Shown one piece after another: positions 31,491 to 51,963 of a DNA stretch of 64,000 nt. The notes below the pieces were generated by a model. The model worked only from the letters and a program-made list of their open reading frames with translations, made no database searches and had not been told where the DNA came from. Position 1 is the first letter of the stretch; every line of letters begins with the position of its first letter. Position numbers and translations under genes: made by a program. This stretch comes from Candidatus Binatia bacterium (GTDB taxonomy: Bacteria > Desulfobacterota > Binatia > UBA12015). The stretch covers positions 67,347 through 131,346 of the forward strand of contig JAXLXO010000007.1 of assembly GCA_046327915.1 (NCBI GenBank). The letters are read 5' to 3'.

Positions 31491-32741
31491 TCAGGGCTTC
31501 GCCGGCGCAGTCTTGCTCGCGTCGTCCCGCTGGGCGCGCTCGATCGCGAGCGCGTACTGGAAGTGCTCCGGACGGAGGCTGCCGGGAACCTTGCGGCCGT
31601 TGATGAAGAAGGTCGGCGTGGACTCGACGCCGACGGCCGCGCCGGCCGCGACGTCGGCCGCGACCTTCGCCGCGGCGGCGGGCGACGCGAGGCAGCGCTC
31701 GAACTCGCCTTGGTCGAGACCGAGGCGCGCCGCGTAGCCGACGAGGCTCGGCGTATCGAGCGCGCTCTGGTTCTGGAACAGCGTCCGATAGTACTCCTTC
31801 TGCTTGCCCTGCGCGGACGCGCACTCGTAGGCGACCGCGGCCTGGCAGGCGTGCGGATGCCCCTCCTGCTTGACCTGCGGATTGCAGCCGGAGCTCAGCG
31901 GGAAGTTGCGGTGCACCAGCTTCACCGGAACGCGCGCGGCGTCGAGGATCGGCGTCAGGTCGAGGAACGCGCGGCCGCAGGCGGGACACTCGAAGTCGGA
32001 GAACTCGACCAGCGCGATCTGGTCGGCCGACGCACGATCCTTCTCGTCGAGCTGAAGGTCGATGACCGGCTGCGAGATGTACCAGGCGTAGAAGCGCGGG
32101 TCCTTCTCGCGGATCTCGTCGACCGACATGATCTGCGTGCTGCCGCTCTTCGGCATCTGGATGAAGAGCAGCACGACGACCAGTGCCGCGATCGCGCCGG
32201 CGGTCGGGATCCAGAAGCGGGTCGGCGTCCAGCCCGGCGGAGCCGCGGCGTTCAGCGAACGGACGATCGCGACCGCGGCGCCGAAGAGCGCGATGTTGAC
32301 CGCGTCGAGGCTCAGGCACAGCGGGCACGCGACGCCGATCACGAAGGTCGAGACGGCGAAGAAGTAGAGCGACACGACGAGCATCGCCGCGGTGAACGCC
32401 GCCAGCGTCGCCGCGGCCCGGGTGCGCGCCTCGCTGCGCGCATTGCGCAAGGAGAATGCGAGCGCCGCCGTGGCAAGGTATGCGGCGAGTGCCCAGCCGG
32501 CCACGGGGATGCCGAGGACCTTCGCGTACGAGCTCGCCAGCACCACGTCGCACGACAGGTGGGCCGAGACGTCGCAGAAACTCGTGTAGCCACCCTGGCC
32601 ACTCGAGATCTGATGATGGATATAGAGCACCACCGCGCTCAGGGCGGCGCCCAATCCAGCTAGGACGATGACCAGGACAGGGAGGATTCCGATGTCGGGC
32701 GCCGCTTTCGGGGCTGCAGGGGAGCGACGCGCCGTGCTCAT
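31491..32741 (-). CDS. Vitamin K epoxide reductase (VKOR) domain fused to a periplasmic thioredoxin/DsbA-like domain.
   Basis: VKOR four-helix core with CxxC (ACPLCLSL), and a C-terminal Trx-fold with FECPACG. Confidence 0.85.
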   Translation of the reverse strand: MSTARRSPAAPKAAPDIGILPVLVIVLAGLGAALSAVVLYIHHQISSGQGGYTSFCDVSAHLSCDVVLASSYAKVLGIPVAGWALAAYLATAALAFSLRNARSEARTRAAATLAAFTAAMLVVSLYFFAVSTFVIGVACPLCLSLDAVNIALFGAAVAIVRSLNAAAPPGWTPTRFWIPTAGAIAALVVVLLFIQMPKSGSTQIMSVDEIREKDPRFYAWYISQPVIDLQLDEKDRASADQIALVEFSDFECPACGRAFLDLTPILDAARVPVKLVHRNFPLSSGCNPQVKQEGHPHACQAAVAYECASAQGKQKEYYRTLFQNQSALDTPSLVGYAARLGLDQGEFERCLASPAAAAKVAADVAAGAAVGVESTPTFFINGRKVPGSLRPEHFQYALAIERAQRDDASKTAPAKP

Positions 32742-35700: not shown

Positions 35701-36183
35701 TACGCCGTGCGCGAGCGGCGGCTCGCACTGATCTTCGTGGTCGCGGGCTGGGTCATCCACCTCGCGCCGTGGGTCGGCATCAGCCGCACGCTGTTCCTCT
35801 ACCACTACCTGCCGTCGCTGCTGTTCGCGTTCCTCGCGCTGTCGTGGACCCTCGACCGCATCTGGAACGGCGAGGGCAGCACGATCGAGCGCGGGCTCAT
35901 CGGCGCGACGCTGCTGGCGAGCATCCTGCCGGTCGCGATGGCCACGCTGGGCAGCTGGGGGCCGCTGGTCTTCCTCGCCCTGCTGCTCGCGTACGAGGGC
36001 CTGCTGTTCTCCAGCGAGCGCGACCAGCTGCGCGTCGGGCGCGCGGCCGTCGCCCTCTACTGTGTCGCGATCCTCGCGGTCGCGATGTACTTCCTGCCCA
36101 TCTGGCTCGGGACCCCGGTCACCAAGCGCGCCTGGGAGGCGCGCATGTGGATCTCGGGCTCGAAGTTCATGAACTGGATATGA
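32740..36183 (+). CDS. Large fused GT-C glycosyltransferase: signal peptide, CBM4/9-like module, DUF2029/GT87-like GT-C domain (DYPPGY), then PMT/GT39-like GT-C domain.
   Basis: N-terminal NGGFLEADGEQPAGW... beta-sandwich signature, then about 11 TM segments with YFADYPPGYMYVLWAV. A second polytopic half opens with DEVYFVEQGRDYLEGKDFMDPHPPIAKLTIGLGIKLFG (PMT family). Start at 32740 (MTTGDS..., signal peptide). Confidence 0.8.
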   Translation: MTTGDSTQPPHAFQRGRRVLRTLFFGLLILLLPGLAQAQNLVRNGGFLEADGEQPAGWTTEQWSPTLGTTFGWEKGVSGLGAVTIRNPVGNDARWIQNVRVQPETWYRLSGSVRAIGVTAGYGASLGVMGGFEQAREIKGEDSGWQQVSMWYKTKPGQNQLTIGCRLGNYGQIAAGEVRCTGIELTAVATPPLNADFVYGPLDESTTPVGVPAALGIVALLGIALWLYGRLPAEVPLTERLALHGVLVALLIAKFLVAPYFSYKVDIGSYSAWALKLAAEGPARFYAPGYFADYPPGYMYVLWAVGLVSRLFRAGWQSPWFVALLKLPALLADLAVARLIFARLRPGRKRVAWLAAMAFALNPALLLNSTIWGQTDSVLALLALLAFLALGDRRFELAWSLAALAILTKPQALLLVPLFVLWPWGWWKSGRPLSALLAILATVFVVADPFRGERPWTWLVELYTGTTGYYAETSVNAMNLPALLFGMRGNDAERYLGVGTQTWGFAIGLVVGLIFLVPYLRRRTRSLHAGLVAAATLVAFMCLTRMHERYLYPYFVFAGLIGVTGRWGVLYWVLSALFFANELLVYLYQADATAGPVWLWKTLSVLGVACVPVAAWLYWRLAGRQDDPPGAAALDEDDARWQQSLETAQAAAATRAPAERPVTAGTPDEGTGPSWRWHEVAFLLVLTAASLGLRLHDLANPTDLVFDEVYFVEQGRDYLEGKDFMDPHPPIAKLTIGLGIKLFGDTPTGWRTMNAIVGTALVPLMYLLGRVLFRRRLAAAFAAFFVAFDGLCLVDSRIAVIDIHYVTWGVAGYVSALYMVRKQEWERTWRLLLTGVLMGLSVAAKLYIPFFSFLLVLGTIGLTAWGFAKQRGIAPLRFALWPVFVVGLVASVVYVLSYTPHFWWGWWHSPLDLVKYIVFRVPEYQAAVKDATHPYSSKWWTWPLLLRPVWYYWKDPGPAPGMVVGIWGSGNPPVWWAALPALILCTYYAVRERRLALIFVVAGWVIHLAPWVGISRTLFLYHYLPSLLFAFLALSWTLDRIWNGEGSTIERGLIGATLLASILPVAMATLGSWGPLVFLALLLAYEGLLFSSERDQLRVGRAAVALYCVAILAVAMYFLPIWLGTPVTKRAWEARMWISGSKFMNWI

Positions 36184-36881
36184 GCGCGCGTCCGACCCGA
36201 TCGTCCCTGGTGCTCGCCGTCCTCGCGGCGGTGCTCGCGCTCGCGCCCGCGGCGCACGCGTCCACCGAGCTGGTCAAGAACGGACTTCTGGCCGACGGCA
36301 CCGACGGCAAGCCGAAGGACTGGCGCAACGACGCCTACTCGGCGGACGCGAGCCGGCTGACGTGGCTCGTCGACCCGAGCGGGCTCGGCGTGCTGTCGAT
36401 CGACAGCGACCAGCCGAACGACGCGCGCTGGGTGCAGACCGTCCCGGTCTCGCCGAACACCTGGTACCAGGTGTTCGGCTGGCTGCGCGCGGAGAAGGTC
36501 GGCGCTCAGGCGATGGGCGTCTACCTGTCGGTGCTCGACACGTTCTACAACTCGCGCGACCTGCGCGGCGATGCGCCGTGGCAGCCGGTCTCGTTCTGGG
36601 TGAAGACCGGCTCGATCGACACGTCGCTGCAGATCGCCTGCCGCGTCGGCGGCTACAGCTCGCTCAACACCGGCCACGGCTGGTGCACCGGCATCTCGGT
36701 GATGGCCGCGGGCACGCCGCGCTCGGGCGATCCGTTCGTGTTCGGCGGCACCGCGCCCGGCGGCGAGGGGGGATCGCAGGACCTGCCGGTCGCGAAGGGC
36801 GTCGCGGTGCTCGTCGTCGTCGGTATCGTGCTGCTGGCGTGGCGCTACCTGGCACCGCCGTCGGTGCGCATCCCGCGGTGA
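36180..36881 (+). CDS. Exported CBM4/9-like module protein with a C-terminal TM anchor. It is a paralog of the N-terminal module of the upstream glycosyltransferase.
   Basis: Signal peptide MSARPTRSSLVLAVLAAVLALAPAAHA, then LVKNGLLADG...DW...NDARWVQTVPVSPNTWYQVFGW...WCTGISV aligning block-by-block with residues 40-200 of the upstream protein, then VAVLVVVGIVLLAW. The start overlaps the upstream stop (ATGA). Confidence 0.65.
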   Translation: MSARPTRSSLVLAVLAAVLALAPAAHASTELVKNGLLADGTDGKPKDWRNDAYSADASRLTWLVDPSGLGVLSIDSDQPNDARWVQTVPVSPNTWYQVFGWLRAEKVGAQAMGVYLSVLDTFYNSRDLRGDAPWQPVSFWVKTGSIDTSLQIACRVGGYSSLNTGHGWCTGISVMAAGTPRSGDPFVFGGTAPGGEGGSQDLPVAKGVAVLVVVGIVLLAWRYLAPPSVRIPR

Positions 36882-38449
36882 GACGCGCGCGGGCCGCGGC
36901 GCTGCTGCTGCTCACACTGGTGGGCGGCGTGCTGCGCTTCTCGTCGACCGACTTCGGGCTGCCCGACAAGTACCGGCCCGACGAGGAGTACATGGTGTCG
37001 CGCGCGCTCGGCTTCGACCGCGACTGGAATCCACACTTCACGGTCTATCCGGCTGCGCAGATGTACGTGCAGCACGGCGTGCTCCGCGCGTACGCGCTGC
37101 TGCACGGCTACAAGCGCAACTTTCGCGAGGTCTACGCGACCGACAAGCAGGCGCTGGCCTGGCTGATCGCGCGTCGCACGTCGGCCGCCTTCGGTACCGC
37201 CACGATCCCCGCGACCTATCTCGCCGCCGCGCAGGCGTTCGGGCCGCAGGCGGCCCTCGCCGCCGCGACCATCGTGACGTTCTCGACGATCCACGTGCGC
37301 GAGTCGAAGTACGCGACGACCGACGCCGCGACGACGTTCTGGCTGACCATCGTGCTGTGGCTCGTGCTGCGCGTGATCCGGCTGGGGCGCGTGCGCGACT
37401 CGCTGCTCGCCGGACTCTTCACCGGCTTCGCGATCGCCAACAAGTATCCCGCGGGCGCTGCGATGGTGGCGCTCGGCCTCGCGCACTTCGAGGCACGCTG
37501 GCGCGAGGGACGCTCGCTGTGGCGCACCGTGCGCGACATCCGCCCGTACGTCGCGGTCTACGCGGCGGTGGTCGCGTTCCTCTGCGCGACGCCGTACTTC
37601 GTCCTCGACTGGGACCAGACCGCGAAGGACTTCGCCTACCAGCGCGGATTCGTGCAGAACGGCGTCGGCAACGTCGCGGCGGGCTACGGCTGGTCGTGGC
37701 TCGCGTACAAGGTCCTGCCGCACTCGTTCGGCACGGCGCTCGCGCTGCTGCTGGTCGCGGGGCTGGTGTGGGCGCTGATCCGTCCCGCGCTCGGCACGCT
37801 GCCGATCCTCGCGTTCGTGCTGGTCGCGTTCGCCGGCATGGCCGGCAGCCGCTACTCGTTCTACCGCTACGTCATGGTGCCCCTGCCGGGGCTCGTGCTG
37901 CTCGGCGGACGGCTCGTCGCGAGCGTCGGCGACGGTCTCGCGCGCCGCATGACGGAGCGACGCGCACACGCGGTCGTCGCGGCGGCGCTGCTCGCCCTGC
38001 TCGTGCCGTCGGTGATCCGCGACGTGAAGCTGAACCGCATCCTCGCGCGGCGCGACACGCGCACCATCGCGCGCGAGTGGATCGAGCAGAACCAGCCCGG
38101 GGGCGGTGCGGTCGCGGCGAGCGACCACGGCACGCCGTACGGCAAGCCGCAGCTGCCGCCGAACTACACATGGGTGCCGATCGAGGACGTCGCGACGCTG
38201 CGCGCGAAGGGCGTGCGCTTCGTCGTCGCCGACACCTCGCCGCTGGAGTTCTACTCGCACGGCCCGACGCCGGAGCAGCTCGCCGACCTCGAGAAGAACG
38301 CGAAGCTCGTGCTCGACGAGGATCCGGTCGACCCGGACGGTCCGCCGCCGGTGTTCGACATGGCCGACGCGTTCTACGCACCCCTGCAGCACGCCTCGAG
38401 CATGTCGCGGCCCGGACCGCGCATCCGCATCTGGCGCATCGATCCTTGA
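36878..38449 (+). CDS. Glycosyltransferase family 39 / ArnT-like (PMT_2) GT-C membrane protein.
   Basis: FGLPDKYRPDEEYMVSRALGF... plus 10-12 TM helices and a C-terminal soluble domain. The GTG start overlaps the upstream stop (GTGA). Confidence 0.8.
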   Translation: MRRARAAALLLLTLVGGVLRFSSTDFGLPDKYRPDEEYMVSRALGFDRDWNPHFTVYPAAQMYVQHGVLRAYALLHGYKRNFREVYATDKQALAWLIARRTSAAFGTATIPATYLAAAQAFGPQAALAAATIVTFSTIHVRESKYATTDAATTFWLTIVLWLVLRVIRLGRVRDSLLAGLFTGFAIANKYPAGAAMVALGLAHFEARWREGRSLWRTVRDIRPYVAVYAAVVAFLCATPYFVLDWDQTAKDFAYQRGFVQNGVGNVAAGYGWSWLAYKVLPHSFGTALALLLVAGLVWALIRPALGTLPILAFVLVAFAGMAGSRYSFYRYVMVPLPGLVLLGGRLVASVGDGLARRMTERRAHAVVAAALLALLVPSVIRDVKLNRILARRDTRTIAREWIEQNQPGGGAVAASDHGTPYGKPQLPPNYTWVPIEDVATLRAKGVRFVVADTSPLEFYSHGPTPEQLADLEKNAKLVLDEDPVDPDGPPPVFDMADAFYAPLQHASSMSRPGPRIRIWRIDP

Positions 38450-41691: not shown

Positions 41692-43668
41692 TCAGGGCTG
41701 CACGGGGATGGTCGCGACGTCCTCGTACGCGAGCGAGTGCATGAAGGCGGTCCACTGCGCGCGCGCCGGCTCGAAGTTGAAGAACGGGAAGTGGCCCTGC
41801 GCGTCGTAGAGCGCGAGCCCGCCGGTCGCCGTCTTCTTTCCCTTCACGAGGTTGCCCGACACCGGCGGCGACAGCGTCGGCAGCCCCGCGAGGTCGAACG
41901 CCTCCTGGTACTGGTAGCCCGGCAGCTCGGGGAACGAGATCGGCGGGAACGTCGGCGCCAGCAGCGGATAGCCCGCACCGACGACCATCGCGGTGACCAT
42001 CGGCGTCGGCACGTAGCCGTCGGCGGTTCCGTGCGTGAACAGGATCGACAGCGGCGCGCCCTTGCGGCGCTTCGCGAACAGCGGCGAGAACACCGCCGGG
42101 TCCGAGACCTCGCTGCCCATCTGCAGCAGGTGCAGCGCGGGGTGGAAGAGATCGACCGGACCGCCGAGCAGGATCTCCACCAGGTCGCGCAGCTTGAGCC
42201 CGGCGTAGAACTCCTGCTCGCGGCTCAGGATGTTGACTAGCAGGTGCCCGCCACCGGCCGAGATCACTCCGCCGAGGACTCCGTGCGCGACGCCGAGGAA
42301 GAGCGGTCCCGTGGTCGCTCCCTGCGAGTGGCCGACGTACATGACGCGCTTGCGGTCGAAGCGGATCGTCTTCGACGTCGTCGTGAAGCCTGCACCGGGG
42401 ACGGCGGACGCGAGCAGGTCCGGGTCGAGCGTCAAGCGCCGCACGAGCTCGTGCACGGCGAGCGAGTCGGTCGCCGCCTGCAGCGGGTTGTCGCGCAGCG
42501 CGTCCGGATTCAGCGGGTTGTAGAAGTTGGTGCCGTCGGCGGTCGCGCCGGGCCGAAGCCCGTGCAGCGGCTGGTCGATGCCGATACCCGCGATGCCCTG
42601 AGCCGCGAGGCGCCCCGCCGTGCCGTCGTTCACGAAGCTGTTCCGGCTGCCGCCGGTGCCGTGCATGTAGGGCGCGATCGGCCAACCCTTCTTCGGCAGC
42701 GGCAGCGTGCCGTCGTCGCGCTCCTTGGGCACGGTCAGGACGAAGCTCAGCACGTCGTGACGCTGCACGAGCGGGCGTCCCTTGCCGTCGAACTGGTAGA
42801 TGCCGGAGCCGGCGGCGGAGAACGGCGGCGTGCCGGTCTGGAACTGCGGCGCGAGAAACGTTCCCGTGAAGGTCCAGTAGGCGCCCGTCGAGCGCGCCGC
42901 GTCGAGCGCAAGATTCGTCGCCTCCGGACGCACCTTCGCGCGGACGAAGCGCTCGACCGACTGCATCGGCGCCGTCGGGTCGCCGGTGCGGAACACCGTG
43001 GCTCCGACCACGTGCTCGCGCGACAGCCCCTCCTCGCGCTCGAGCTGCTTCCACAGCTTCTCGAAGAGAGGCAGCGCTGCCGCCTCGAACGACGTCGTCG
43101 CGGCCCCCGCCCGCATCTGCTCGACGAACGGCGAGGCCGTGACCGGAGCCGCGTCTGCGCCGTGCAGGTCGTCGGTGACCACCAGCGCGTAGAGCGTGTC
43201 GGGCTCGAGCGGCAGCCCCGGGACCGGCATCGCCGCGAGCAGGTGATCGTCACGCCACGCGTCGCCCGTGTCGCGAAACTCGATCCACAGCGGCGTGCGT
43301 GTCCCGCGCGCCTTCGAGCGCGGGTCGATGTCGATCAGGAAGAGGCTCGAGCCGGGCGCCGCGCTGGCGGCGGGGTCTGCGGGCAGCGTCGCGGGATCGA
43401 TCGCGCCGTCGAACTTGAGGAACACGCCGGACGCGAGCCCGAAGCCGCGCGTCCGCTCCAGGGCGACGCGATACGACTGCACCAGCGCGTTCGCCGGAAA
43501 CGGAAAGCTCGCGAGCGACACGCTGCCGTCGCCGTCGCGACGCAGCTCCATGGGGAACGGCACGTCGTAGAACGAGGCTCCCTCCGGGTCGAAGATCTGC
43601 TGCACCGCGGGCGCAGGCGTCGCGGCGAGGACGAGCAGAAGGAGGGCGAGCGGGGCGCGGAGCGGCAT
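41692..43668 (-). CDS. Secreted alpha/beta-hydrolase (lipase/esterase-like) with a long N-terminal domain.
   Basis: Signal peptide MPLRAPLALLLLVLAATPAPA. Nucleophile elbow VGHSQGATTG about 430 aa in. GGAGG RBS upstream. Confidence 0.7.
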   Translation of the reverse strand: MPLRAPLALLLLVLAATPAPAVQQIFDPEGASFYDVPFPMELRRDGDGSVSLASFPFPANALVQSYRVALERTRGFGLASGVFLKFDGAIDPATLPADPAASAAPGSSLFLIDIDPRSKARGTRTPLWIEFRDTGDAWRDDHLLAAMPVPGLPLEPDTLYALVVTDDLHGADAAPVTASPFVEQMRAGAATTSFEAAALPLFEKLWKQLEREEGLSREHVVGATVFRTGDPTAPMQSVERFVRAKVRPEATNLALDAARSTGAYWTFTGTFLAPQFQTGTPPFSAAGSGIYQFDGKGRPLVQRHDVLSFVLTVPKERDDGTLPLPKKGWPIAPYMHGTGGSRNSFVNDGTAGRLAAQGIAGIGIDQPLHGLRPGATADGTNFYNPLNPDALRDNPLQAATDSLAVHELVRRLTLDPDLLASAVPGAGFTTTSKTIRFDRKRVMYVGHSQGATTGPLFLGVAHGVLGGVISAGGGHLLVNILSREQEFYAGLKLRDLVEILLGGPVDLFHPALHLLQMGSEVSDPAVFSPLFAKRRKGAPLSILFTHGTADGYVPTPMVTAMVVGAGYPLLAPTFPPISFPELPGYQYQEAFDLAGLPTLSPPVSGNLVKGKKTATGGLALYDAQGHFPFFNFEPARAQWTAFMHSLAYEDVATIPVQP

Positions 43669-43724
43669 GGGAACCTCCGTGTTTCCGGAACCGGATCCGG
43701 ACCGCCCTGCTATCAGGCATGCGC

Positions 43725-43740
43725 GGGGTCGCGCGACCCC
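43725..43740. repeat. Perfect 16-nt GC palindrome GGGGTCGCGCGACCCC between the FecR-like gene and the hydrolase gene. A second palindrome CCGGATCCGG lies about 30 nt further on.
   Basis: Read directly from the 81-nt intergenic region. There is no U-tract on either strand. Confidence 0.35.
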
Positions 43741-43749
43741 TCGTTCGCG

Positions 43750-46734
43750 TCAGCCGCCGCGACCTCCGAACGAGCCGCCGCCCATGGAGCGGCCGCCACC
43801 GAAGCCGCCGCCACCCATCGAGCGCCCGCCGCCGAAGCCGCCGCCCGTGCCGCCGCCGAAGCTGCCACCGCGCGAGAAGCCGCCGCCACCACCGGTGCCG
43901 CCGAAGGAGCGGCCGGCGCCCGGCGCGGATCCGGCGGAGTACGCGCGACTCATCCCCGAAGACAGCGAGCGCGACGCGGCACCGCTGCCGCCACCCGAAA
44001 GCGACGGCGTGGAGCGCCCGTACGACGGCGCGGCACTCGGTGCGCGGGTGCCGTACGACGTCGGCGCACGCATCTGGCCGTAGGGCGCGCTGCGCGCCTG
44101 CGGCGTGCCGCCGTACGTCGCGTACGAGCGGCTCCCCGACGGAGCGCCGTACGACCCGCTCCGCGTGGGATACGCGGGCGCCGCGCGCGACGCCGTCCGC
44201 GGTGCCGAGAAGTAGCTGCGCGAGCCGCGGTCCGGGGCCGGCGCTGGCGCCGAGCGCATCGACGGCGAGTACGCCGACGGGGCCGAGCCGCCACGCGACA
44301 CGGACGGGGCCGAGGGAGCGGAAGGTGCGGTGGGCGCGGACGGCATCGTGCGCGTCACGGTGCCGCCGGGGAGTGCGCGCGCATTCGTGCCACCGCCCGA
44401 ATTGCTGCCGCTCGCGTCGGACGAGCGCACCGTCGGGTTCGACGGCACGCGGCCGTAGGTCGGCGCACCACCCGGCGCGGTCACGTCGGGCATCGTCGCG
44501 GCGCGGCCGCCCGACGGATTGCCGTCGCGCGGCGAGCCGTAGGTCGTGCGCGGCGCGTACGTGCCACGTCTGGTCTCGTTCTGGCCGGTGCTCGCGCCAC
44601 CGCTGCCCGGCATCGCCCCCCCCGTGGTGCCGCCGCTGGGCGGACTCCACGCAGGTCGGCGTGCGACGTACGGCTGGTGCGCCGCACCGCCGCCCTCGCG
44701 CGGCGCGACCGGCATGGCACGGCCGCCGTCGTCCACGGTGGACGGCGGGCGTGCGACGTTCCGCGACCCGTAGGCCGGAGCTGGAGCGTCGCCGTTCCGC
44801 GCGCCGTACACCGGCGCCGTACCGCTGCCGCCGCGCGAGCCGTAGACGGGCGCGGAGCCGCCGTCCGCAGGCGTACCACCCGCGCCGCCGTTGCCGTCGG
44901 GCAGCGTGCGCGAGCCGCCGTACGTCGTGGTCTGCCGCGGGACACCCGCACGATCCTGGCCCGCACGATCGAAGCCGGTGCCCGGGTCGGTTGCCGGACC
45001 TCCGTTCGCCGTGCGCGGCACGGCGCCGTTGCCGCCGAACGGTGACGTGCGTCCGGAGGTATCGCTCGCCTCGAGGCCCGGGGCGCGGCCCGTGTCCGGT
45101 GTGGTCACCGCGGGCAGCGTCCGTCCTTGACGCCCGCCGCCGGTCGGCGTTCGCACCGTCTGAACGGCCGGTGCGCGGCCGCCCTCGCTGCCGAGCTGGC
45201 GCAGCGTCGTCGGCGTGAGCGGCGTGCCCTGCCCGCGCTGGATCTGCGGCAGCTTGCGATCGAAGCTCGGCTGACCAACCGTGGTCGGCGTGCGTGCGGC
45301 CATCACGCTGCGCCCCTCGACGCCCGCTGGCGGCTGCACGACGCGTCCGCCGAAGCCGCGCGACGGATTCGTCGCGGGCAGGCTGTCGCGCGTCGGCGTG
45401 ACCGGCACGCGTCCACCGAGCGCGTGGAAGCTGTCCTGACGCTGCGTGCCGACCGGCACGGGGCGACCGCGGCCGTTCTGGAAGTCGCCGATCGGCATGC
45501 TCGAGAAGCCGCCCGGGTGACGCAGGTTGCCGTAGTTGTAGTTGTTGATCGTGATGTTGGTGACGTTCTTCTGGTAGAAGCGCGGGCCGCCCCAGCCGCC
45601 CCACCACGGGTTGCCGACGGCGACGCCGCCCCAGCCACCCCACCACGGGAAGCAGGGCTCGCCCCAGCCGAGCGGCGTCCAGCCGATCGCGCCGAAGCCG
45701 ACCGAGACCGAAACGCCGCCCCAGCCGCCGCCGTACCAACCGACGAGCGCGGGCGCGTAGATCGGCGCCGGAACGATCGGACCCGGCGCCCAGCCCCACC
45801 AGCCGCTGGTGTACACCCAGCGGCCGTAGTGGAACGGCGCCCAGCCCCAGGGCGAGTAGTCGAGCCACGTCCAGCCCCACGGGTCGACCCAGACCCAGCG
45901 GCCGTCGGTGTACGGCGCCCAGCCGGACGCGACGCGCGGCCGCCACACGGCGCCGTAGTCGCCGGTGTTCTCCCAGTCGCCGTAGTCGTCGAGATCCTCG
46001 ACGCCGTAGATGCCGTCGCTGACGTACTGCGTGCTGACCGCGTTCTCGATGCGGCCCGCGCGCTGCGACTCCCACTCGTCCCAGCCGTCGGCACCCGACG
46101 CGGCGTAGATGCGCGGACGTGCCGCGTCACCGATGCCGTCGATCGCGACGCCGCGGCCGTCGCCGATCTGGTACTCGTCGCCGGCGACGTAGGCCGTCAC
46201 CTCGCCGCCGCGCACCTGCACGTTGGTGTCGCCGTTGCGCTCGACGTTGACCCGGTAGGCGCCCGCCTCGCGCACGACGAACGCGCCGCCCGGAGTGTCG
46301 ATCTCGACGTGGCGTCCGTCGGGATTGCGGCGCACGCGGAACGTCGCGAGGCCGAGCGTCATGCGGACCTGCGTCACTTCAGGACCGAGCTCGAGCATGC
46401 TGACCTCGGTCTCGCTCGACAGGCGCGCGTACGTGACGGGGTCGAGCTGGATCTCGGCACGGCTGTCGGCGGCGGTATAGAGCCGGTCGCCGGTGACCAG
46501 GGGCGCGTTGACCGCGACCCCGGTCCAGTCTTCGGCATCTCCGCGCAGGTACGAGGCGTCGCCCTCGATCAGGCTGACGCGGGCCACTCCGGGCTCCTCG
46601 TCCGCCGCGCCGGCGCGCGCGGACCGGACGCTTCCGGCCAATGCGGCGCACGCGGCGACGGCGCAAAGCACGACGGACAGCCCGCGGCGCCACGTGCGCT
46701 GCGGGCTCGACATCCCAGACTCGCGGGATCGCAT
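43750..46734 (-). CDS. Exported FecR-domain protein with a Trp-rich (WGW) repeat region and a roughly 550-aa Gly/Ser/Pro/Arg/Tyr low-complexity C-terminal tail.
   Basis: Signal peptide LSVVLCAVAACAALAGSVRSARA. FecR-like domain (VSLIEGDASYLRG...VTGDRLYTAADSRAEIQL). W-rich block DPWGWTWLDYSPWGWAPFHYGRWVYTSGWWGWAPG...PWWGGWGG. The tail is dominated by G/S/P/R/T/Y with YG, RGG and FGGG repeats ending GGFGGGRSMGGGGFGGGRSMGGGSFGGRGG. Confidence 0.7.
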   Translation of the reverse strand: MRSRESGMSSPQRTWRRGLSVVLCAVAACAALAGSVRSARAGAADEEPGVARVSLIEGDASYLRGDAEDWTGVAVNAPLVTGDRLYTAADSRAEIQLDPVTYARLSSETEVSMLELGPEVTQVRMTLGLATFRVRRNPDGRHVEIDTPGGAFVVREAGAYRVNVERNGDTNVQVRGGEVTAYVAGDEYQIGDGRGVAIDGIGDAARPRIYAASGADGWDEWESQRAGRIENAVSTQYVSDGIYGVEDLDDYGDWENTGDYGAVWRPRVASGWAPYTDGRWVWVDPWGWTWLDYSPWGWAPFHYGRWVYTSGWWGWAPGPIVPAPIYAPALVGWYGGGWGGVSVSVGFGAIGWTPLGWGEPCFPWWGGWGGVAVGNPWWGGWGGPRFYQKNVTNITINNYNYGNLRHPGGFSSMPIGDFQNGRGRPVPVGTQRQDSFHALGGRVPVTPTRDSLPATNPSRGFGGRVVQPPAGVEGRSVMAARTPTTVGQPSFDRKLPQIQRGQGTPLTPTTLRQLGSEGGRAPAVQTVRTPTGGGRQGRTLPAVTTPDTGRAPGLEASDTSGRTSPFGGNGAVPRTANGGPATDPGTGFDRAGQDRAGVPRQTTTYGGSRTLPDGNGGAGGTPADGGSAPVYGSRGGSGTAPVYGARNGDAPAPAYGSRNVARPPSTVDDGGRAMPVAPREGGGAAHQPYVARRPAWSPPSGGTTGGAMPGSGGASTGQNETRRGTYAPRTTYGSPRDGNPSGGRAATMPDVTAPGGAPTYGRVPSNPTVRSSDASGSNSGGGTNARALPGGTVTRTMPSAPTAPSAPSAPSVSRGGSAPSAYSPSMRSAPAPAPDRGSRSYFSAPRTASRAAPAYPTRSGSYGAPSGSRSYATYGGTPQARSAPYGQMRAPTSYGTRAPSAAPSYGRSTPSLSGGGSGAASRSLSSGMSRAYSAGSAPGAGRSFGGTGGGGGFSRGGSFGGGTGGGFGGGRSMGGGGFGGGRSMGGGSFGGRGG
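43760..43900 (-). repeat. Imperfect in-frame tandem DNA repeats (units about 24-27 nt, GCC/GCCGCC-rich) that encode the terminal GGFGGGRSMGGG repeats of the FecR-like protein.
   Basis: Plus strand shows gagcgcccgccgccgaagccgccgcc / cgtgccgccgccgaagctgccacc / gcgcgagaagccgccgccaccacc in series. Confidence 0.5.
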
Positions 46735-46882
46735 GATCGTTCTCTTTCTCGTCCGCCGGCGCGGGCGGTCATTGCCCGGATCGCGGCGGATACCCCTTCA
46801 ACACGCGGTTGCGCGAAAGGATGCACTGATTCTGCGCCTTCCGTCCGGACCGCGCGAGATGCTTCCGCACGCTGGCCCGGTG

Positions 46883-47935
46883 TCACGACAGCGGCTGGAG
46901 CCAGCTGATCGTGCCGGGGTGGCGGAGCTCGCCGGCCACGCGCTCGCCGCGGTCGTCGGCGCCGCAGAAGAGGTCGAGGCGTCCCGGGCCGGTGATCGCC
47001 GTGCCGGTGTCCATGGCGATCACGAGGGAGTCGAACGTGCCGCCGTCGGGAAGGGGCACGACGAGCCGTCCGATCGAGCCCAGGGGAACCACCTTCGGGT
47101 CCACCGCCACCGAGCGCCACGGCACCAGCGGCACGCCGAGAGCGCCCGGCGGACCGTCGTCGCCGCCGCCCGGACGGGCCGAGAAGAACACGTAGCGCGG
47201 ATTGGTCCGCATCAGCTCCGGGGCTTCCGACGGATTCGCGCGCAGCCACGCCTTGATCACCGGAGCGGTGACCTCGTCGCGCCGGTAGACGCCGCGCTCG
47301 ACCAGGACCGACCCGATCGCGCGGTACGTGCGGCCGTTGTTGCCGGCGTAGCTCACGCGCACGACGCTGCCGTCGTCGAGGCGCAGCCGACCGGAGCCCT
47401 GCACCTGCAGGAAGAACAGCTCGACCGGGTCGTCGGTCCAGAACAGCTCGAGGCCGCGGCCCGCAAGCGCACCGTCGTCGATCTCGGCGCGCGTCGGCAG
47501 CGGACCACCGGTCGCAGGCGGCATGCGGTAGAGCGGGAAGCGGAAGGTCGCGTCCGGCTTGCGGCGCGCCGTGAGCGTCGGCTCGTGATAGCCGGTGACG
47601 AAGACCTCGCGCACCGGGCCGGCGCGAAAGCTCTTCGCGAGCGCGTCCTGCAGCGGCGGCGTCGACGGTGAGCGCAGCGCTGCCGCCAGAAGTTCGAGGC
47701 CACGCGCCGTGCGGATCGTCTCCGCGGTCGCGTCCGACCGGGCCGCGCGCTTCGCCAGCACCGCTCGCGACGCGTCGGCCGCGCGCGCGAGCGCCGCGCG
47801 CGACGCCGCATCGTCCGCAGCGACGGCCCCGGGCGACGCGGCATCCGCGTCCGTCGCGGACGCGCCGCGGCGCGCGGGCAGCGCGGCGTCCGGCGCCGCG
47901 GCACAGCCCGCGGCGAGCAGCGCCGCGAGCACCAC
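46883..47935 (-). CDS. mltA: Membrane-bound lytic murein transglycosylase A (MltA family).
   Basis: MltA-type 3D/barwin blocks (YHEPTLTARRKPD, YAGNNGRTYRAIGSVLV, FCGADDRG...). The start is uncertain: GTG at 47935 or upstream CTG/ATT giving a lipobox LAAGC. Confidence 0.8.
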   Translation of the reverse strand: MVLAALLAAGCAAAPDAALPARRGASATDADAASPGAVAADDAASRAALARAADASRAVLAKRAARSDATAETIRTARGLELLAAALRSPSTPPLQDALAKSFRAGPVREVFVTGYHEPTLTARRKPDATFRFPLYRMPPATGGPLPTRAEIDDGALAGRGLELFWTDDPVELFFLQVQGSGRLRLDDGSVVRVSYAGNNGRTYRAIGSVLVERGVYRRDEVTAPVIKAWLRANPSEAPELMRTNPRYVFFSARPGGGDDGPPGALGVPLVPWRSVAVDPKVVPLGSIGRLVVPLPDGGTFDSLVIAMDTGTAITGPGRLDLFCGADDRGERVAGELRHPGTISWLQPLS

Positions 47936-47948
47936 CCGGCGAGCGGCG

Positions 47949-49121
47949 TCAATCAGCGGCGAGCACCCGCTCGACGGCTCCGAGCGCCGCGCCGCCGGAC
48001 GACGAGCCCAGCGTCTCCGCCAGTGCCGCCAGTACCAGCAGGACGTTCGCCGGCGTCGACGAGTCGCCCATGAGCCCGATGCGCCAGACCTTGCCCTTCC
48101 ACGGCCCGAGGCCGGCGCCGATCTCGATGCCGTGCCGGTCCAGCAGGCGCTTGCGGACACCCGCCTCGTCGACGCCGTCGGGCACCAGCACGCTGTTCAG
48201 CATCGGCAGCCGGTGTTCGGGTGCGACCGGCATCGCGAGGCCGAGCGCCTCGATCCCCGCGACCAGCGCGCGGTGGTGCTTGACGTGGCGCGCGAAGCGG
48301 GCCTCGAGGCCCTCCTCGTGCACGATGCGCAGCGCCTCGTACAGCGCGTACACCATCGTGATCGGCGCGGTGTGGTGGTAGACGCGGTCGGTGCCCCAGT
48401 ACTGCTCGAGCAGGCTGACGTCGAGATACCAGCTCTGAACCTTGTGCTTGCGGGAGCGGACGCGCTCGAGCGCCCGCTCGCCGAAGGTCACCGGCGACAG
48501 CCCCGGCGGACACGACAGGCACTTCTGCGTGCCGCTGTACGAGGCGTCGATGCCCCAGGCGTCGACCTCGAGCGGGGTTCCGCCGAGCGACGTCACCGTG
48601 TCGACGACGAAGAGCGCGCCGCGCTCGTGCGCGATGCGCGACAGCTCCTCGAGCGGCTGCCGCGCCCCCGTGGACGTCTCGGCGTGGACGCACGCGACCA
48701 GCCGCAGCGGTGCGTTCGCAGGCAGCGCCGCGAGCATGTCGCGCAGCACGTCGGCGTCGATCACCTGCCCCCACGGCACCTCGACGGTCGTCACCTCGGC
48801 GCCGGCGCGCTTCGCGATCTCGACCATGCGGCCGCCGAACACGCCGTTCACGCAGATCACCGCGTGGTCGCCGGGCTCGAGCAGGTTCACCAGCACCGCT
48901 TCCATGCCCGCGCTGCCGGTCGCCGACAGCGGGAACGTCAGCCGGTTCGCGGTGCGGAAGGTCTGCCGAAGCAGCTCCTTCACCTCCTCCATCAGCGCGA
49001 CGAAGGACGGATCGAGGTGGCCGACCAGCGGCGTCGACATCGCGCGCAGGACGCGCGGTCCTACCTCGCTCGGTCCGGGGCCGAGCAGGATCCGGCGCGG
49101 CACGTTCAGCTCGTGGGGCAT
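47949..49121 (-). CDS. Class V aminotransferase (serine--pyruvate / alanine--glyoxylate aminotransferase-like).
   Basis: AGXT-family layout, with PLP-lysine context [12 protein letters not shown] and an N-terminal [10 protein letters not shown] block. 390 aa. Confidence 0.88.
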
Positions 49122-49195: not shown

Positions 49196-50755
49196 CTAGC
49201 CGAGAAGGGGCCGCTTGAGCGACAGCCACATCCACGAAGCGATGCGCTTCAGGATGGTGTCGGCGGCGAAGCGCTCGACGTCGACCGTGGTCTGCACGTT
49301 GGGCCACGTGCCGGAGACCGAGAACGGAACCGAGATCTCGCCGTCGTCGTTCACCAGAGCGCCCGCGAGAGGGGCCATCGCGACGAGGTCGCGCGACAGG
49401 TCCGACGACACCTCGAGGCGTCCCGTGAACGCGACCTTGCCGTTCATGTCCAGCGAGCCGCGGCCCGCGACCTCGTAGCCGTTGCCGGCGAGACGCAGGT
49501 CGCTCGCGTTGATCTGCGAGTCGGCGATCGTCACGGGGCTCGCGATCTGGTCGAACGACGTGTTCTTCGCGGTGAAGAGCGCGCCCAGGCGCGACGGCGC
49601 CTCCTGCTCGCCCAGCACCGGCTGCACCACGTCGGCGATGAAGTTGTGGCCGGTGATCGCGCCCGACACGACGGTCATCTCGCCGCCGCCGGACACGCGA
49701 TTGGTGATGTCGTTCCAGGTCTCGCCCTTCGTCGCGAGCCGGCCCTCGAACGTGAGCCCGCCGCCGACGACGCTCCCGACCTGCGGGAAGGCCCGCAGCG
49801 GAACCGCGTTCAGAGCGACGCGGTCGAGCTTGTAGCTCGGCGTCTCGCCCTTGCCCCACGGCCCGACGTCGCCCTGGAAGACGACGTTGTGCTTCGTCGA
49901 CTCGAAGCCGGCCTTCGCGTCGAGGTGCACCGGCGTGCCCTCGCCGAAGCCGTGCAGCTCCGCGTCGACCGACGCCATGCGGATCTCGCGCGGCTGTCCG
50001 CTCGCGCGGTCGATCACGCGGATCGTGCCGCCGGCGATCTCGACGTGGTGCACCGCGCGCTTGCTCGCGATCGCGAAGATGTCCTCCGCGCCAACCGAGT
50101 GCGGCAGCAGCGCGTCGACGTTCACGCGGCCCGACGGGTCGCGCACGATGTTGATCACCGGCTGGTCGAGCTTCAGGCTGCCGCTCAGCTCGCCGTGCGC
50201 GAGGGCCCCCATGTCGACGCTGAAGCTCGCGTTCGACGCGGTGAGCATCGGCTCGCCGCCGTCCGGGTCCTTGACGGTGAGTCCGGAGAGGTCGACCGCA
50301 GGGCCGCCACGCAGGCTGAGCGAAACGTTCTCGATCTTCGCACGGTCGCCGAAGGCCGACTGCAGGCGCGCGACCGCGGCCGACTCGAGACGGTCGCCGA
50401 GCGCGCGTCCGCCGAGCAGAGCCGACAGCAGGCCCGCGGAAACGAGCGCGACGCTCGCCGCGATCTTCCACATGCGGCTCGGTGCGGCGTCCGTGCGGAC
50501 GACGCCACCGCGGCGCGCGAGCACCAGCTCCTGCGCGCAGTTCGGACAGAACGCGACGTGACGCTCGAAGACCTCTTCCTCCGATCCGGAGAGGCCGCCC
50601 TCGAGGTAGGTCGCCAGGGTGTACTCGGAAGGATGGACGGTCGCAGCGGCAGCGTCCGCGACCTGCTGGTCGGGAGTGCCATTGAGCATGAGATCGCGCA
50701 TGGCCTCCTGGACCATCGCGCGAACTCTCTGCTCTTCCTGATCGACCTTCAGCAT
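49196..50755 (-). CDS. Anti-sigma factor (zf-HC2) fused through one TM helix to a periplasmic AsmA-like domain.
   Basis: HVAFCPNCAQEL (HxxxCxxC), TM helix IAASVALVSAGLLSALLGG, then a roughly 400-aa beta-rich domain with AsmA-like character. The start is 2 nt after the sigma factor stop. Confidence 0.75.
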   Translation of the reverse strand: MLKVDQEEQRVRAMVQEAMRDLMLNGTPDQQVADAAAATVHPSEYTLATYLEGGLSGSEEEVFERHVAFCPNCAQELVLARRGGVVRTDAAPSRMWKIAASVALVSAGLLSALLGGRALGDRLESAAVARLQSAFGDRAKIENVSLSLRGGPAVDLSGLTVKDPDGGEPMLTASNASFSVDMGALAHGELSGSLKLDQPVINIVRDPSGRVNVDALLPHSVGAEDIFAIASKRAVHHVEIAGGTIRVIDRASGQPREIRMASVDAELHGFGEGTPVHLDAKAGFESTKHNVVFQGDVGPWGKGETPSYKLDRVALNAVPLRAFPQVGSVVGGGLTFEGRLATKGETWNDITNRVSGGGEMTVVSGAITGHNFIADVVQPVLGEQEAPSRLGALFTAKNTSFDQIASPVTIADSQINASDLRLAGNGYEVAGRGSLDMNGKVAFTGRLEVSSDLSRDLVAMAPLAGALVNDDGEISVPFSVSGTWPNVQTTVDVERFAADTILKRIASWMWLSLKRPLLG

Positions 50756-50757
50756 CT

Positions 50758-51432
50758 TCAGAATCTGCCTTCGAACTTCTCCGAGGCGAGCCTTCTCAGC
50801 TTCTCGTGCAGCCGCATCTTGCGGACGTACGCCGCATTCGTGGTGATCCCGATCGTGTTGGCGACCTCTTCGATCGGCAATCCCTGAAAATAGAATAGCT
50901 GGACGAACAGCTGATCTTTCGGCGCCAGCTGCGCGATCAGATCGCGCACCCTGGACGCACGTTGGGCCTCCTCTACCAGCGGCTCGGGTCCCGGCCTCGT
51001 GTCCGGATGGGTCTCCCGAACCCGCCAACTCTCACTGTTGTTCGGATCGTCGAGAGAAACCGTCCGACCCTCCCGCCGCAGCCGGTCGATCGTCAACCGG
51101 TTGGCCACCACCCTGAGCCAGCTCGCCAAGGAGCAGCCGTTCCGCCCCTGGTACTGGCGGAGCTTGCGTGCGTCCTGATCGAACAGGGCCAGGAAGACGT
51201 CCTGGCAGATGTCCTCGATTTCCTCTCGTCTTGATGGACGGCCGAACTGCTGAAAAATTACAGAGACGCCGTACGAGACGATGCCGGAATATTCGGCGAC
51301 GAGCCGGCGGCGCGCGTCCACGTCACCGCGGATGCAGCCCTGCAGCAGCTCTGTGGTCGCGTCGGCGCCTTCCGAGCCGGGCGAAGGCGGCAGAATCGCG
51401 ACCCGATCGGCACCGGACGGGTAACCGCTCAT
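50758..51432 (-). CDS. ECF (group IV) sigma-70 family RNA polymerase sigma factor.
   Basis: Region 2 (AEYSGIVSYGVSVIFQQF...EDICQDVFLALF) and region 4 HTH (LPIEEVANTIGITTNAAYVRKMRLHEKLR). The ATG is at 51432. The longer upstream ORF is low-complexity and rejected. Confidence 0.85.
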   Translation of the reverse strand: MSGYPSGADRVAILPPSPGSEGADATTELLQGCIRGDVDARRRLVAEYSGIVSYGVSVIFQQFGRPSRREEIEDICQDVFLALFDQDARKLRQYQGRNGCSLASWLRVVANRLTIDRLRREGRTVSLDDPNNSESWRVRETHPDTRPGPEPLVEEAQRASRVRDLIAQLAPKDQLFVQLFYFQGLPIEEVANTIGITTNAAYVRKMRLHEKLRRLASEKFEGRF

Positions 51433-51528
51433 GGCCGGTAACGCCTTGTACGGGCCGGTATCGGAAACAGCAAGGGAATCTCCCGGTCGTGACAGCAAGG
51501 ACGGAGCGCCGCGTCTCTTTCTGTCGAC

Positions 51529-51825
51529 GTGGGTGCGACTGCCGTTTTCATCATCTGCTCGTCCGTGGCCGCCGTGGTCGGTGGGGTGGTCTGGTCGATT
51601 GCCTGGCGGGTCGGCTTCGGGGAGGGCCGTCTGACCATTCCCCTGCGACTCGTCCACGCCCTCGCCGAGCACGAAGTGACGTGCCGCGGCCGGAATCCCG
51701 ACCAGGTCGTCCGCGAATTGATCCGCGTCCTCGCGCTGCCGGAGCGTGAAAGCCGTCGGCTCATCGCGAGCAAGCTCCGTTCCGCCGCCTCTTCGCCCGC
51801 GCCGACCACGCTGCGCTCGGCCTGA
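51529..51825 (+). CDS. Candidate small protein (98 aa) in the 530-nt gap: N-terminal TM helix plus an RHH/CopG-like helix.
   Basis: GC3 is about 85%, like neighbouring genes. The sequence ...RLTIPLRLVHALAEHEVTCRGRNPDQVVRELIRVLALPE reads as a beta-strand plus helix. There is no RBS evidence and the start is unclear (GTG). Confidence 0.3.
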   Translation: MGATAVFIICSSVAAVVGGVVWSIAWRVGFGEGRLTIPLRLVHALAEHEVTCRGRNPDQVVRELIRVLALPERESRRLIASKLRSAASSPAPTTLRSA

Positions 51826-51963
51826 GGCCCGTCCTCGCGAAACCCGACGCGCCGTTACGGGGCCCGGAACGGCTCCGTTCGTCAACGCGGCGCGACAGGT
51901 GTCGCCCCCGGGCGACGCGCCGGCCCTGCGCCGCGCGGGAAATCCCCCGCCGCAGAGGCTCGT

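Follow-up and report, generated by a model that had tools for sequence, protein, structure and literature searches.

The 64,000-nucleotide stretch of a Candidatus Binatia bacterium analysed here, called the window below, carries on its reverse strand a gene at 43750..46734 (-) whose predicted product is difficult to place. A sequence-only reading described it as an exported protein with a FecR-like domain and an aromatic cluster, followed by a long tail unlike that of any bacterial periplasmic protein. The locus therefore raises the question of what kind of protein this is and what its tail might do. With near certainty, the product is exported by Sec to the envelope and belongs to the FecR-DUF6600 family, which is widespread and functionally uncharacterised. 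It is a further member of a catalogued family, and it has the most extended tail seen among the sampled proteins. Near-identical heads are already present in public data, where NCBI names them 'DUF6600 domain-containing protein' or 'FecR family protein'. The closest relatives come from metagenome-assembled genomes (MAGs) of Binatia; the heads of P0001/P0121 are 85-90% identical to that of the gene product, and across phyla the figure is about 40% (related loci and proteins are given by our handles, L and P). An exact look-up in the contig index had no record of the gene product or of P0082.

A genuine coding frame and its tryptophan-rich head

The open reading frame (ORF) at 43750..46734 (-) starts with ATG, encodes 994 aa followed by a stop and is a complete coding sequence. 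Its length alone is weak proof of coding, because the window has a GC content of about 73% and long shadow ORFs overlap the same DNA, one of 941 aa in another frame (43250..46075 -) and one of 933 aa on the other strand (42244..45045 +). The frame is shown to be genuine by third-position GC content (GC3), by Pfam matches in the N-terminal 460 residues and by frame retention in orthologues. GC3 lies between 0.82 and 0.95 in every block of 100 codons, tail included (0.82-0.90 through the tail). The L004 orthologue (head identity 82%) stays open for 863 codons up to the contig end without a stop, and L084/P0121 is a complete orthologue of 941 aa whose tail can be aligned up to the extreme C-terminus. 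Throughout the tail, the length differences from L084/P0121, L004 and L003 are in-frame indels only, and no stops occur. The 994-aa gene proposed from the sequence alone is thus borne out. That proposal had named a tail frameshift in related genomes as evidence against itself, and the frame is kept in L003, L004 and L084.

The first 41 residues (46612..46734 -) resemble a signal peptide, with a basic n-region, the hydrophobic segment VVLCAVAACAAL and then SARA/G. The Kyte-Doolittle average over a 12-aa window is 2.85 at residues 21-32, about 17 residues lie upstream of the hydrophobic segment, and AlphaFold2 (AF2) places a helix at residues 12-43. A comparable N-terminal hydrophobic segment is found in 199 of the 209 full-length family members, in keeping with the export signal postulated earlier. 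A lipoprotein reading (VAAC29, lipobox-like) was rejected since the cysteine is not conserved in P0001 or P0003, and a Tat signal was rejected since the RR pair is missing in L004.

The folded head was modelled with AF2 over residues 1-460 from an alignment of 43 homologues (about 40% identity), giving a mean predicted local distance difference test score (pLDDT) of 83.5 and a predicted template modelling score of 0.82. The model comprises an all-beta part (residues 51-211), helices (217-251), hairpins (252-316), further strands up to residue 354, a Gly/Trp stretch up to residue 390 at lower confidence and a small ordered piece at 400-440. The FecR-like all-beta domain occupies residues 46-215 (46090..46599 -), with pLDDT mostly above 90. 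It matches PF04773 at residues 83-179 (46198-46488) with 32.5 bits against a cutoff of 24, N-terminal to DUF6600. Foldseek places it close to the C-terminal cell-surface signalling domain of PupR (6ovk; E 3.6e-7, root mean square deviation 2.7 Å over about 140 columns) and to the putative anti-sigma factor BDI_1681 of Bacteroidetes (4m0h). These hits have E values of about 1e-6 to 1e-7, and the alignments to 6ovk/4m0h span 132-144 of 213 target residues. The profile match and the PupR fold together confirm the FecR domain of the sequence-only reading.

A conserved helical connector follows at residues 216-251 (45982..46089 -), helical in the AF2 model and containing invariant D216, D219, W221, R225 and S234. 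It leads into the Trp-rich DUF6600 module of residues 252-390 (45565..45981 -). PF20245 matches residues 246-357 with 87.6 bits against a cutoff of 27, and with 92.1 bits when the region is searched in isolation. AF2 predicts three beta-hairpins here (residues 252-266, 278-292 and 305-316), and the module is internally duplicated, as seen in GWAPYTDGRWVWVDPWGWTW and GWAPFHYGRWVYTSGWWGWAP, followed by two copies of PWWGGWGG. Residues 216-390 contain 26 tryptophans; across the 43 homologues the head has 64 invariant columns, of which 17 are Trp. The aromatic cluster and the suggested DUF6600 assignment were therefore correct, and the other family proposed for testing, PF12779 (YXWGXW), gave no match on residues 216-400 even at E<=10. 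Neither a profile match nor solenoid fold similarity links the module to the aromatic hairpin repeats of choline- and cell-wall-binding proteins (CW_binding_1).

Beyond the hairpins, a conserved basic extension at residues 391-520 (45175..45564 -; isoelectric point (pI) 11.75) is partly ordered against the head in the model, with pLDDT of 83-91 at residues 400-460. Family-wide it follows the consensus GxxPVxPxxASLxP...RPP...VVATRxP. The ratio of nonsynonymous to synonymous substitution rates (dN/dS) against three relatives is 0.18-0.27 in this extension, comparable to the folded domains (0.07-0.19 for FecR and DUF6600), and 0.40-0.57 in residues 521-994. The tail is thus under relaxed yet real purifying constraint, with its frame retained. 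Because residues 391-520 are conserved like a domain and residues 400-460 are confidently modelled, the truly low-complexity part measures about 475 aa; the coreless tail reported earlier stands, and its estimated length of about 550 aa does not.

The basic tail, variable half of a constant design

The low-complexity tail proper, residues 521-994 (43753..45174 -), has a pI of 11.5, a net charge of +29 and a grand average of hydropathy of -0.68, whereas the head has a pI of 4.3-4.6. Residues 401-994 consist of G 22%, P 12%, S 12%, A 11%, R 10% and T 9%, and the hydrophobic set ILVMFWC makes up 11%, in agreement with the lack of a hydrophobic core noted at first sight. Against Pfam the tail returned nothing beyond a weak Keratin_2_head match at E 0.51, and NCBIfam gave no match. 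The C-terminal 152 aa had no match at E<=1e-3 among 5.8 billion proteins. Pfam and NCBIfam likewise gave no match to C-terminal sorting signals (PEP-CTERM, the type IX secretion C-terminal domain, LPXTG-type), and the C-terminus, GGGSFGGRGG, has no hydrophobic stretch.

The tail is built of conserved islands amid drifting sequence, together with lineage-specific expansions. The islands are RPPS..PVAPR..PYVARRPAWSPPSGG, GSRSYFSAPRTA, SASRSLSxGMxRA and FSRGGxFGGG. The first, in the fuller form RPPS..GGRxxPVAPR..PYVARRPAWSPPSGG, occupies residues 659-702 (44629..44760 -) and is conserved in L003, L004 and L084. Directly before it, three tandem units of APxYG(S/A)R (residues 626-658; 44761..44859 -) form a lineage-specific in-frame insertion that is absent from L084, L004 and L003. 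The motif P[YFH][VIA]AxRP was counted in 14 of 264 proteins of the family, every one of which belongs to the close subclade. Near the C-terminus, Tandem Repeats Finder detected a 33-bp repeat in 2.4 copies (43766..43845 -) encoding GGFGGGRSMGG, with exact copies at residues 965-975 and 976-986. The terminal repeats described from the sequence are therefore real, GGFGGGRSM being present in two perfect copies (residues 965 and 976); in the orthologue the repeat is degenerate (GGGFGGGSMGAGRASGGGMGGGRSFGGG), and the C-terminal motif is common to L084.

Low-complexity tails of this kind are common in the family. With the head as query, 7,958 proteins or more were retrieved at E<=1e-5. The DUF6600 region by itself retrieved no fewer than 10,315 clusters (50% identity), of which 1,581 had E<=1e-30. 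Species-representative genomes contain at least 597 matches. In the best 150 matches, DUF6600 spans residues ~200-400, and the proteins mostly measure 600-985 aa. Carriers belong to the Acidobacteriota (Bryobacterales, Terriglobia), Binatia, Methylomirabilota/Rokubacteria, Myxococcota, Gemmatimonadota and Betaproteobacteria, the last including Sulfuricella, Thiobacillus, Gallionellaceae and Georgfuchsia (P0082 is Georgfuchsia toluolica); the family is thus almost wholly found in diderm phyla. Matches L050 and L053 come under the names of an archaeal (Nitrosocosmicus) and an actinobacterial (Rugosimonospora) MAG, which probably reflects binning contamination and not a real presence beyond the diderms. 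Members share one architecture of signal-peptide-like segment, FecR domain, helical connector, Trp-rich DUF6600 and basic low-complexity tail. DUF6600 proteins with the domain at unusual positions revealed no extra domains.

Tail statistics were obtained from the 110 top matches in which a recognisable WWGGWGGP anchor is followed by 150 aa of tail or more. Their tails measure 166-427 aa (median 320) and are basic in every case (pI >9 in 110/110; median net charge +23.5, median pI 11.6), and their heads are acidic (median net charge -14, median pI 4.7). Most tails are rich in Pro, Ala, Arg and Gln, with about 1% aromatics and about 4% each of Ser and Thr. The low-complexity tail is therefore a family hallmark, neither unique nor a known adhesin repeat; of the two parts that make up the constant design, it is the one that varies. 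The initial impression of a protein unlike any other in the bacterial periplasm has to be given up, as thousands of bacterial FecR-DUF6600 proteins have basic low-complexity tails of 250-430 aa. The gene product stands out by its length: its tail extends 610 aa past the WWGGWGGP anchor (the 110 members reach at most 427, their median being 320), and none of the other proteins in the sample of 240 is as long as its 994 aa, eleven of them attaining at least 900 aa.

Within otherwise unalignable tails, 70 of the 110 members (P0015-P0120) contain the motif LPGxPANR[LMV][YF], located 21-91 residues from the C-terminus. Its conservation suggests a docking site for a partner. Pairs of paralogous FecR-DUF6600 genes, adjoining or less than 3 kb apart, were observed in Acidobacteriota at L072 (5548-7803, 7998-9905) and L077 (7854-9824, 12893-15082).

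The terminal part of the tail, residues 815-994 (43753..44292 -), has a composition of its own. This sticker-like end consists of 28% Gly, 19% Ser, 10% Arg and 9.4% Tyr plus Phe, with 0.6% acidic and 3.9% aliphatic residues, and includes SYGAP, APSYGRS and FSRGGSFGGG. Its 17 Tyr/Phe residues are evenly spaced, with a coefficient of variation of the gaps of 0.56 versus 0.87 in shuffled sequences, a value reached by 2% of the shuffles. The last 180 aa thus have the sticker-and-spacer pattern of prion-like domains. The low-complexity (LC) region of FUS has 27 [G/S]Y[G/S] motifs in 214 aa, whereas the whole tail of the gene product has 7 [SGA]Y[SGA] and 4 RGG motifs in 604 aa, and Arg and Pro are high throughout. 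The FUS/hnRNP composition put forward earlier is accordingly approached only by the last 180 aa, which are prion- or elastomer-like in make-up, and the likeness is weak for the tail as a whole.

Comparison with better-known disordered proteins is instructive in both directions. With FUS and hnRNPA1 the last 180 aa share a Gly/Ser spacer, about 9% evenly spaced aromatics, arginine and hardly any acidic or aliphatic residues; in contrast to those proteins, the gene product is bacterial, looks exported, has no RNA-recognition motif or zinc finger in Pfam, and its tail is rich in Pro, Thr and Ala and strongly basic throughout (R 10%). The SYGAP and APxYG motifs appear similar to the resilin repeat, GGRPSDSYGAPGGGN, so that, by analogy, resilin-type elastomers may be a better comparison for an exported protein than FUS. 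Elastomeric and adhesive proteins (resilin, plant glycine-rich wall proteins, keratin glycine loops) appear to share with it the motifs SYGAP, APxYG, GGFGGG and GGSFGG and an extracytoplasmic location, but no sequence relationship to them is detectable, given the Keratin_2_head value and the empty search of 5.8 billion sequences. TonB and TolA domain II offer a further parallel in that a long, non-globular, Pro-rich, charged envelope segment is joined to a folded interaction domain. The gene product, however, is built in reverse, with the folded domain N-terminal after a cleavable-looking signal and not after a membrane anchor; a TonB_C or TolA domain is missing from it, and it is not accompanied by ExbBD or TolQR genes.

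Possible functions of the FecR-DUF6600 protein

The explanation that we favour, tentatively and at a little short of even confidence, is that the gene product combines an exported acidic binding head with a polycationic disordered tail that carries a sticky end. The mechanism attached to it, namely head binding, tethering by the tail and self-association, is a more doubtful part, which we infer from the following. The acidic folded head (residues ~46-455: FecR beta domain, helical connector and three-hairpin DUF6600) would act as the binding module. This strongly conserved head may recognise a ubiquitous component of diderm envelopes, perhaps peptidoglycan or another glycan, or else a conserved protein. 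Many invariant Trp, Gly and Pro residues in beta-hairpins are typical of glycan-stacking surfaces. Since the hairpins of the head have such residues and the gene follows that of a lytic transglycosylase, peptidoglycan or another envelope glycan is our guess for the ligand, made by analogy. The basic tail may serve as a flexible electrostatic tether or spacer to polyanions, including lipopolysaccharide, anionic lipids or exopolymers. The lengthened tail of this member, with Tyr/Phe and Arg in its last ~180 aa, may add multivalent self-association or adhesion. Expression would probably be controlled by regulators of extracytoplasmic signals, an extracytoplasmic function (ECF) sigma factor here and sigma-54 or OmpR-type two-component systems elsewhere.

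Several observations weigh against this proposal. Our literature search found no paper on DUF6600 or on any member of the FecR-DUF6600 family. The DUF6600 module has no relative among solved structures, and no ligand can be transferred to it. Export and envelope localisation are read by inspection of the sequence only, and the adjacent MltA gene, the sole hint toward peptidoglycan, is confined to close relatives. The LPGxPANR motif is lost in the whole close subclade of the gene product, which itself keeps RALPGGTVTR at residues 785-794 as a degenerate remnant. Aromatics account for only 4.4% of the last 180 aa in the full-length orthologue closest to it, and the closest head-relatives of the Gly/aromatic-tailed P0128 and P0126 have tails of other composition. 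Tail composition is evidently very labile, and the sticky end may lack functional importance.

Among the other explanations, the protein could be a self-assembling extracytoplasmic material, whose acidic head, basic tail and Tyr/Phe/Arg stickers would give a coacervate, gel or elastomer with a matrix or adhesive function. We consider this unlikely. The opposite charges of head and tail in all 110 sampled members speak for it, as do the last 180 aa, with their 9.4% evenly spaced aromatics and 10% Arg, a pattern that is stronger in P0126, P0150, P0199, P0241 and P0158. P0199 reaches 14% aromatics, and in P0150, P0241, P0158 and P0126 so even a spacing of the aromatics is attained by at most 0.2% of shuffles. 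But the Gly/aromatic end is found in only about 10 of 239 sampled members (~4%), some of which go beyond the gene product, while most tails have about 1% aromatics and the closest orthologue has far fewer than the gene product. No cross-linking enzyme and no secretion system beyond Sec is evident nearby, and neither Pfam nor the search of 5.8 billion sequences revealed similarity to known material proteins.

A role in signalling is a distinctly unlikely alternative. Here the FecR domain would sense a periplasmic or outer-membrane signal and feed it into the ECF sigma/zf-HC2 pair encoded about 2.5-5 kb upstream. The fold similarity to the PupR signalling domain is consistent with such a role, the gene order ECF sigma - zf-HC2/DUF748 - aminotransferase - MltA is kept in L001/L002 and L003, and in other phyla the family gene adjoins two-component systems. 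With the PupR/FecR anti-sigma regulators (6ovk, 4m0h) the gene product shares the FecR beta domain, a probable extracytoplasmic location and, in the Binatia lineage, a nearby ECF sigma gene. It differs from them in its DUF6600 domain and basic tail, and in what Pfam fails to find in it: there is no match to a cytoplasmic N-terminal anti-sigma domain, for which about 17 residues precede the hydrophobic segment, and none to an STN or FecR_C subdomain, DUF6600 coming next instead. No partner TonB-dependent transducer occurs among the ten large ORFs of the window scanned with Pfam (nine of at least 500 aa and one of 442 aa). FecR signalling, as far as it is known, has no place for a basic tail of 475-600 aa. 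The sequence-only reading regarded the FecR domain as detached from the zf-HC2 anti-sigma factor, but that protein has its own extracytoplasmic part, a DUF748/AsmA-like domain. A 'detached FecR sensor' is unsupported, because this ECF sigma gene occurs in 3 of 83 related loci only, the scanned ORFs include no transducer and the gene product has no anti-sigma or STN-like domain.

The protein might alternatively be a stress-induced periplasmic protector or chaperone, holdase-like or buffering, in analogy with ZraP, CpxP and Spy, which are under envelope-stress regulators; we judge this about as improbable as signalling. Disordered tails are common among ATP-independent chaperones, and three classes of envelope-type regulator adjoin family genes in three lineages (ECF sigma factor, histidine kinase with NtrC-type activator, and OmpR-type). 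Such adjacency, however, is limited to some 17 of the 83 loci, no similarity to known chaperone families was found, and the conserved, rigid, Trp-rich head differs from the helical cradles of Spy and CpxP.

Glycosylation of the tail would make the protein a mucin-like glycoprotein scaffold, with its Ser/Thr/Pro-rich tail O-glycosylated by nearby GT-C enzymes. This is improbable, and it is compatible with the head-and-tether explanation that we favour. Two PMT-type genes lie nearby, with synteny in L001/L002; nine Bryobacterales loci have a YfhO-family GT-C gene pointing away from the family gene; and the tail, which includes PSAPTAPSAPSAPS, contains 11% S, 9% T and 11% P. Streptococci O-glycosylate disordered Ser/Thr-rich regions outside the cytoplasm, which shields these from proteolysis (PMC12041528). 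Against it, the PMT genes are on the opposite strand at a distance of 5-11 kb and belong to a block of general synteny, and most family tails are Ser/Thr-poor. Finally, that the tail is a non-functional read-through or annotation artefact of a high-GC genome, with only the first ~450 residues mattering, is very improbable: long spurious ORFs are common in the window, the tail evolves fast with drifting composition and its last 152 aa found no database match, but GC3 stays at 0.82-0.90, dN/dS is below 1, indels are in frame, the C-terminal motif is shared with L084, basic tails of 166-427 aa are present in 110/110 sampled members, and conserved islands and the LPGxPANR motif are located inside tails.

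The wider interest lies in the family more than in this locus, whose gene is the most extreme tail variant seen and not a new kind of system. FecR-DUF6600 proteins form one of the larger uncharacterised envelope-protein families of diderm bacteria from soil, sediment and freshwater. To the database label our analysis adds that DUF6600 is a three-hairpin, internally duplicated, Trp-packed module without a solved relative, that every sampled member joins an acidic head to a basic disordered tail, which constrains function despite the drift of tail sequence, and that the envelope-type regulators adjoining the gene differ between lineages. If the head binds the cell wall and the tail is a tether or self-associates, the family would represent a new structural element of the Gram-negative envelope and a tractable bacterial model of extracytoplasmic disordered proteins. 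A bolder proposal, for which we see little probability, is that the family is a class of exported scaffolds in which head and tail drive extracytoplasmic condensation or an elastomer-like network. Such scaffolds would be a periplasmic or surface counterpart of eukaryotic sticker-and-spacer proteins, tuned in flavour by lineage (Gly/Tyr/Phe/Arg here) and possibly O-glycosylated by GT-C enzymes. The network would be held to the cell wall by the head, a Trp-rich fold not seen before.

Gene neighbourhood and regulators

The gene lies in the co-directional block described by the sequence-only reading, whose members were verified with Pfam and NCBIfam as ECF sigma factor, zf-HC2 protein, class-V aminotransferase, MltA+3D protein, the FecR-DUF6600 gene, a 658-aa hydrolase and a TPR protein. 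The ECF sigma gene (50758-51885 -), about 4 kb upstream, is paired with its own zf-HC2 protein (49196-51028 -), an anti-sigma-like fusion to a DUF748/YhdP/AsmA-like domain that is kept in L001-L003. The fusion of zf-HC2 to a lipid-transport-type domain of the AsmA family is odd for an anti-sigma factor. The class-V aminotransferase gene (47949-49121 -) overlaps at its end by about 210 bp with the mechanically called MltA+3D ORF of 425 aa (46883-48160 -); as MltA proteins of relatives measure 347-402 aa, the true start of MltA is probably further downstream than the ORF start. Downstream of the FecR-DUF6600 gene, the exported-looking hydrolase (41692-43668 -) has no Pfam match and a weak similarity to the VolA/Pla-1 phospholipase model TIGR03502, scoring 60 bits where the cutoff is 384. 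Only L084, the closest relative, has it at the same place downstream of the gene (84% identity), and L001/L002 lack it. The gene order as such is kept in the Binatia relatives L001/L002 (54% identity), L003, L004 and L084. Beyond this close clade none of the block neighbours recurs, with MltA in 4 and the ECF sigma factor in 3 of the 83 loci.

All-vs-all clustering of the ORFs of 82 loci gave no universal gene neighbour; besides frame-shadow ORFs, only lineage-specific two-component systems, YfhO and ABC ATPases recurred. The FecR-DUF6600 protein therefore appears to act alone. A two-component system lies upstream on the same strand in 14 of the 82 loci. Twelve of these are acidobacterial and place a histidine kinase and an NtrC-type sigma-54 activator upstream (L034, L043, L051, L053, L062, L064, L070, L071, L072, L077, L078 and L080), and two are betaproteobacterial (L023, L035) with an OmpR-type pair. 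A -24/-12-like motif, GGCA[CT]-N5-NTGC[AT], is enriched 12-fold just upstream of family genes. These arrangements suggest that different lineages attach different regulators of extracytoplasmic signals to the gene, and that its expression is conditional and linked to the state of the envelope. In nine Bryobacterales loci (L027, L030, L032, L036, L058, L063, L065, L074 and L081), a YfhO-family membrane protein of the GT-C type, about 720-790 aa long, is encoded divergently from the DUF6600 gene.

The leader of 148 bp between MltA and the gene (46735..46882 -) shows conserved blocks, GCATCCTT...CGCGTGTTGAA, in an alignment of the window with L003, L004 and L002. Just before the start codon, a GC-rich hairpin, CCGCCG...CGGCGG, precedes a purine-rich ribosome-binding region, and the leader could be a promoter or regulatory element. 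A consensus scan around the gene detected no sigma-70-like promoter or terminator, and Rfam and tRNA scans of the window, leader included, gave no match. At lower window coordinates and on the opposite strand lie the two PMT-type GT-C genes (32668-36183 + and 36362-38449 +), one of which encodes a 1171-aa GT87+PMT+PMT_4TMC fusion. Genes of this type are unusual for a diderm lineage; they are syntenic in L001/L002 (64% identity), and their products could glycosylate exported tails rich in Ser, Thr and Pro.

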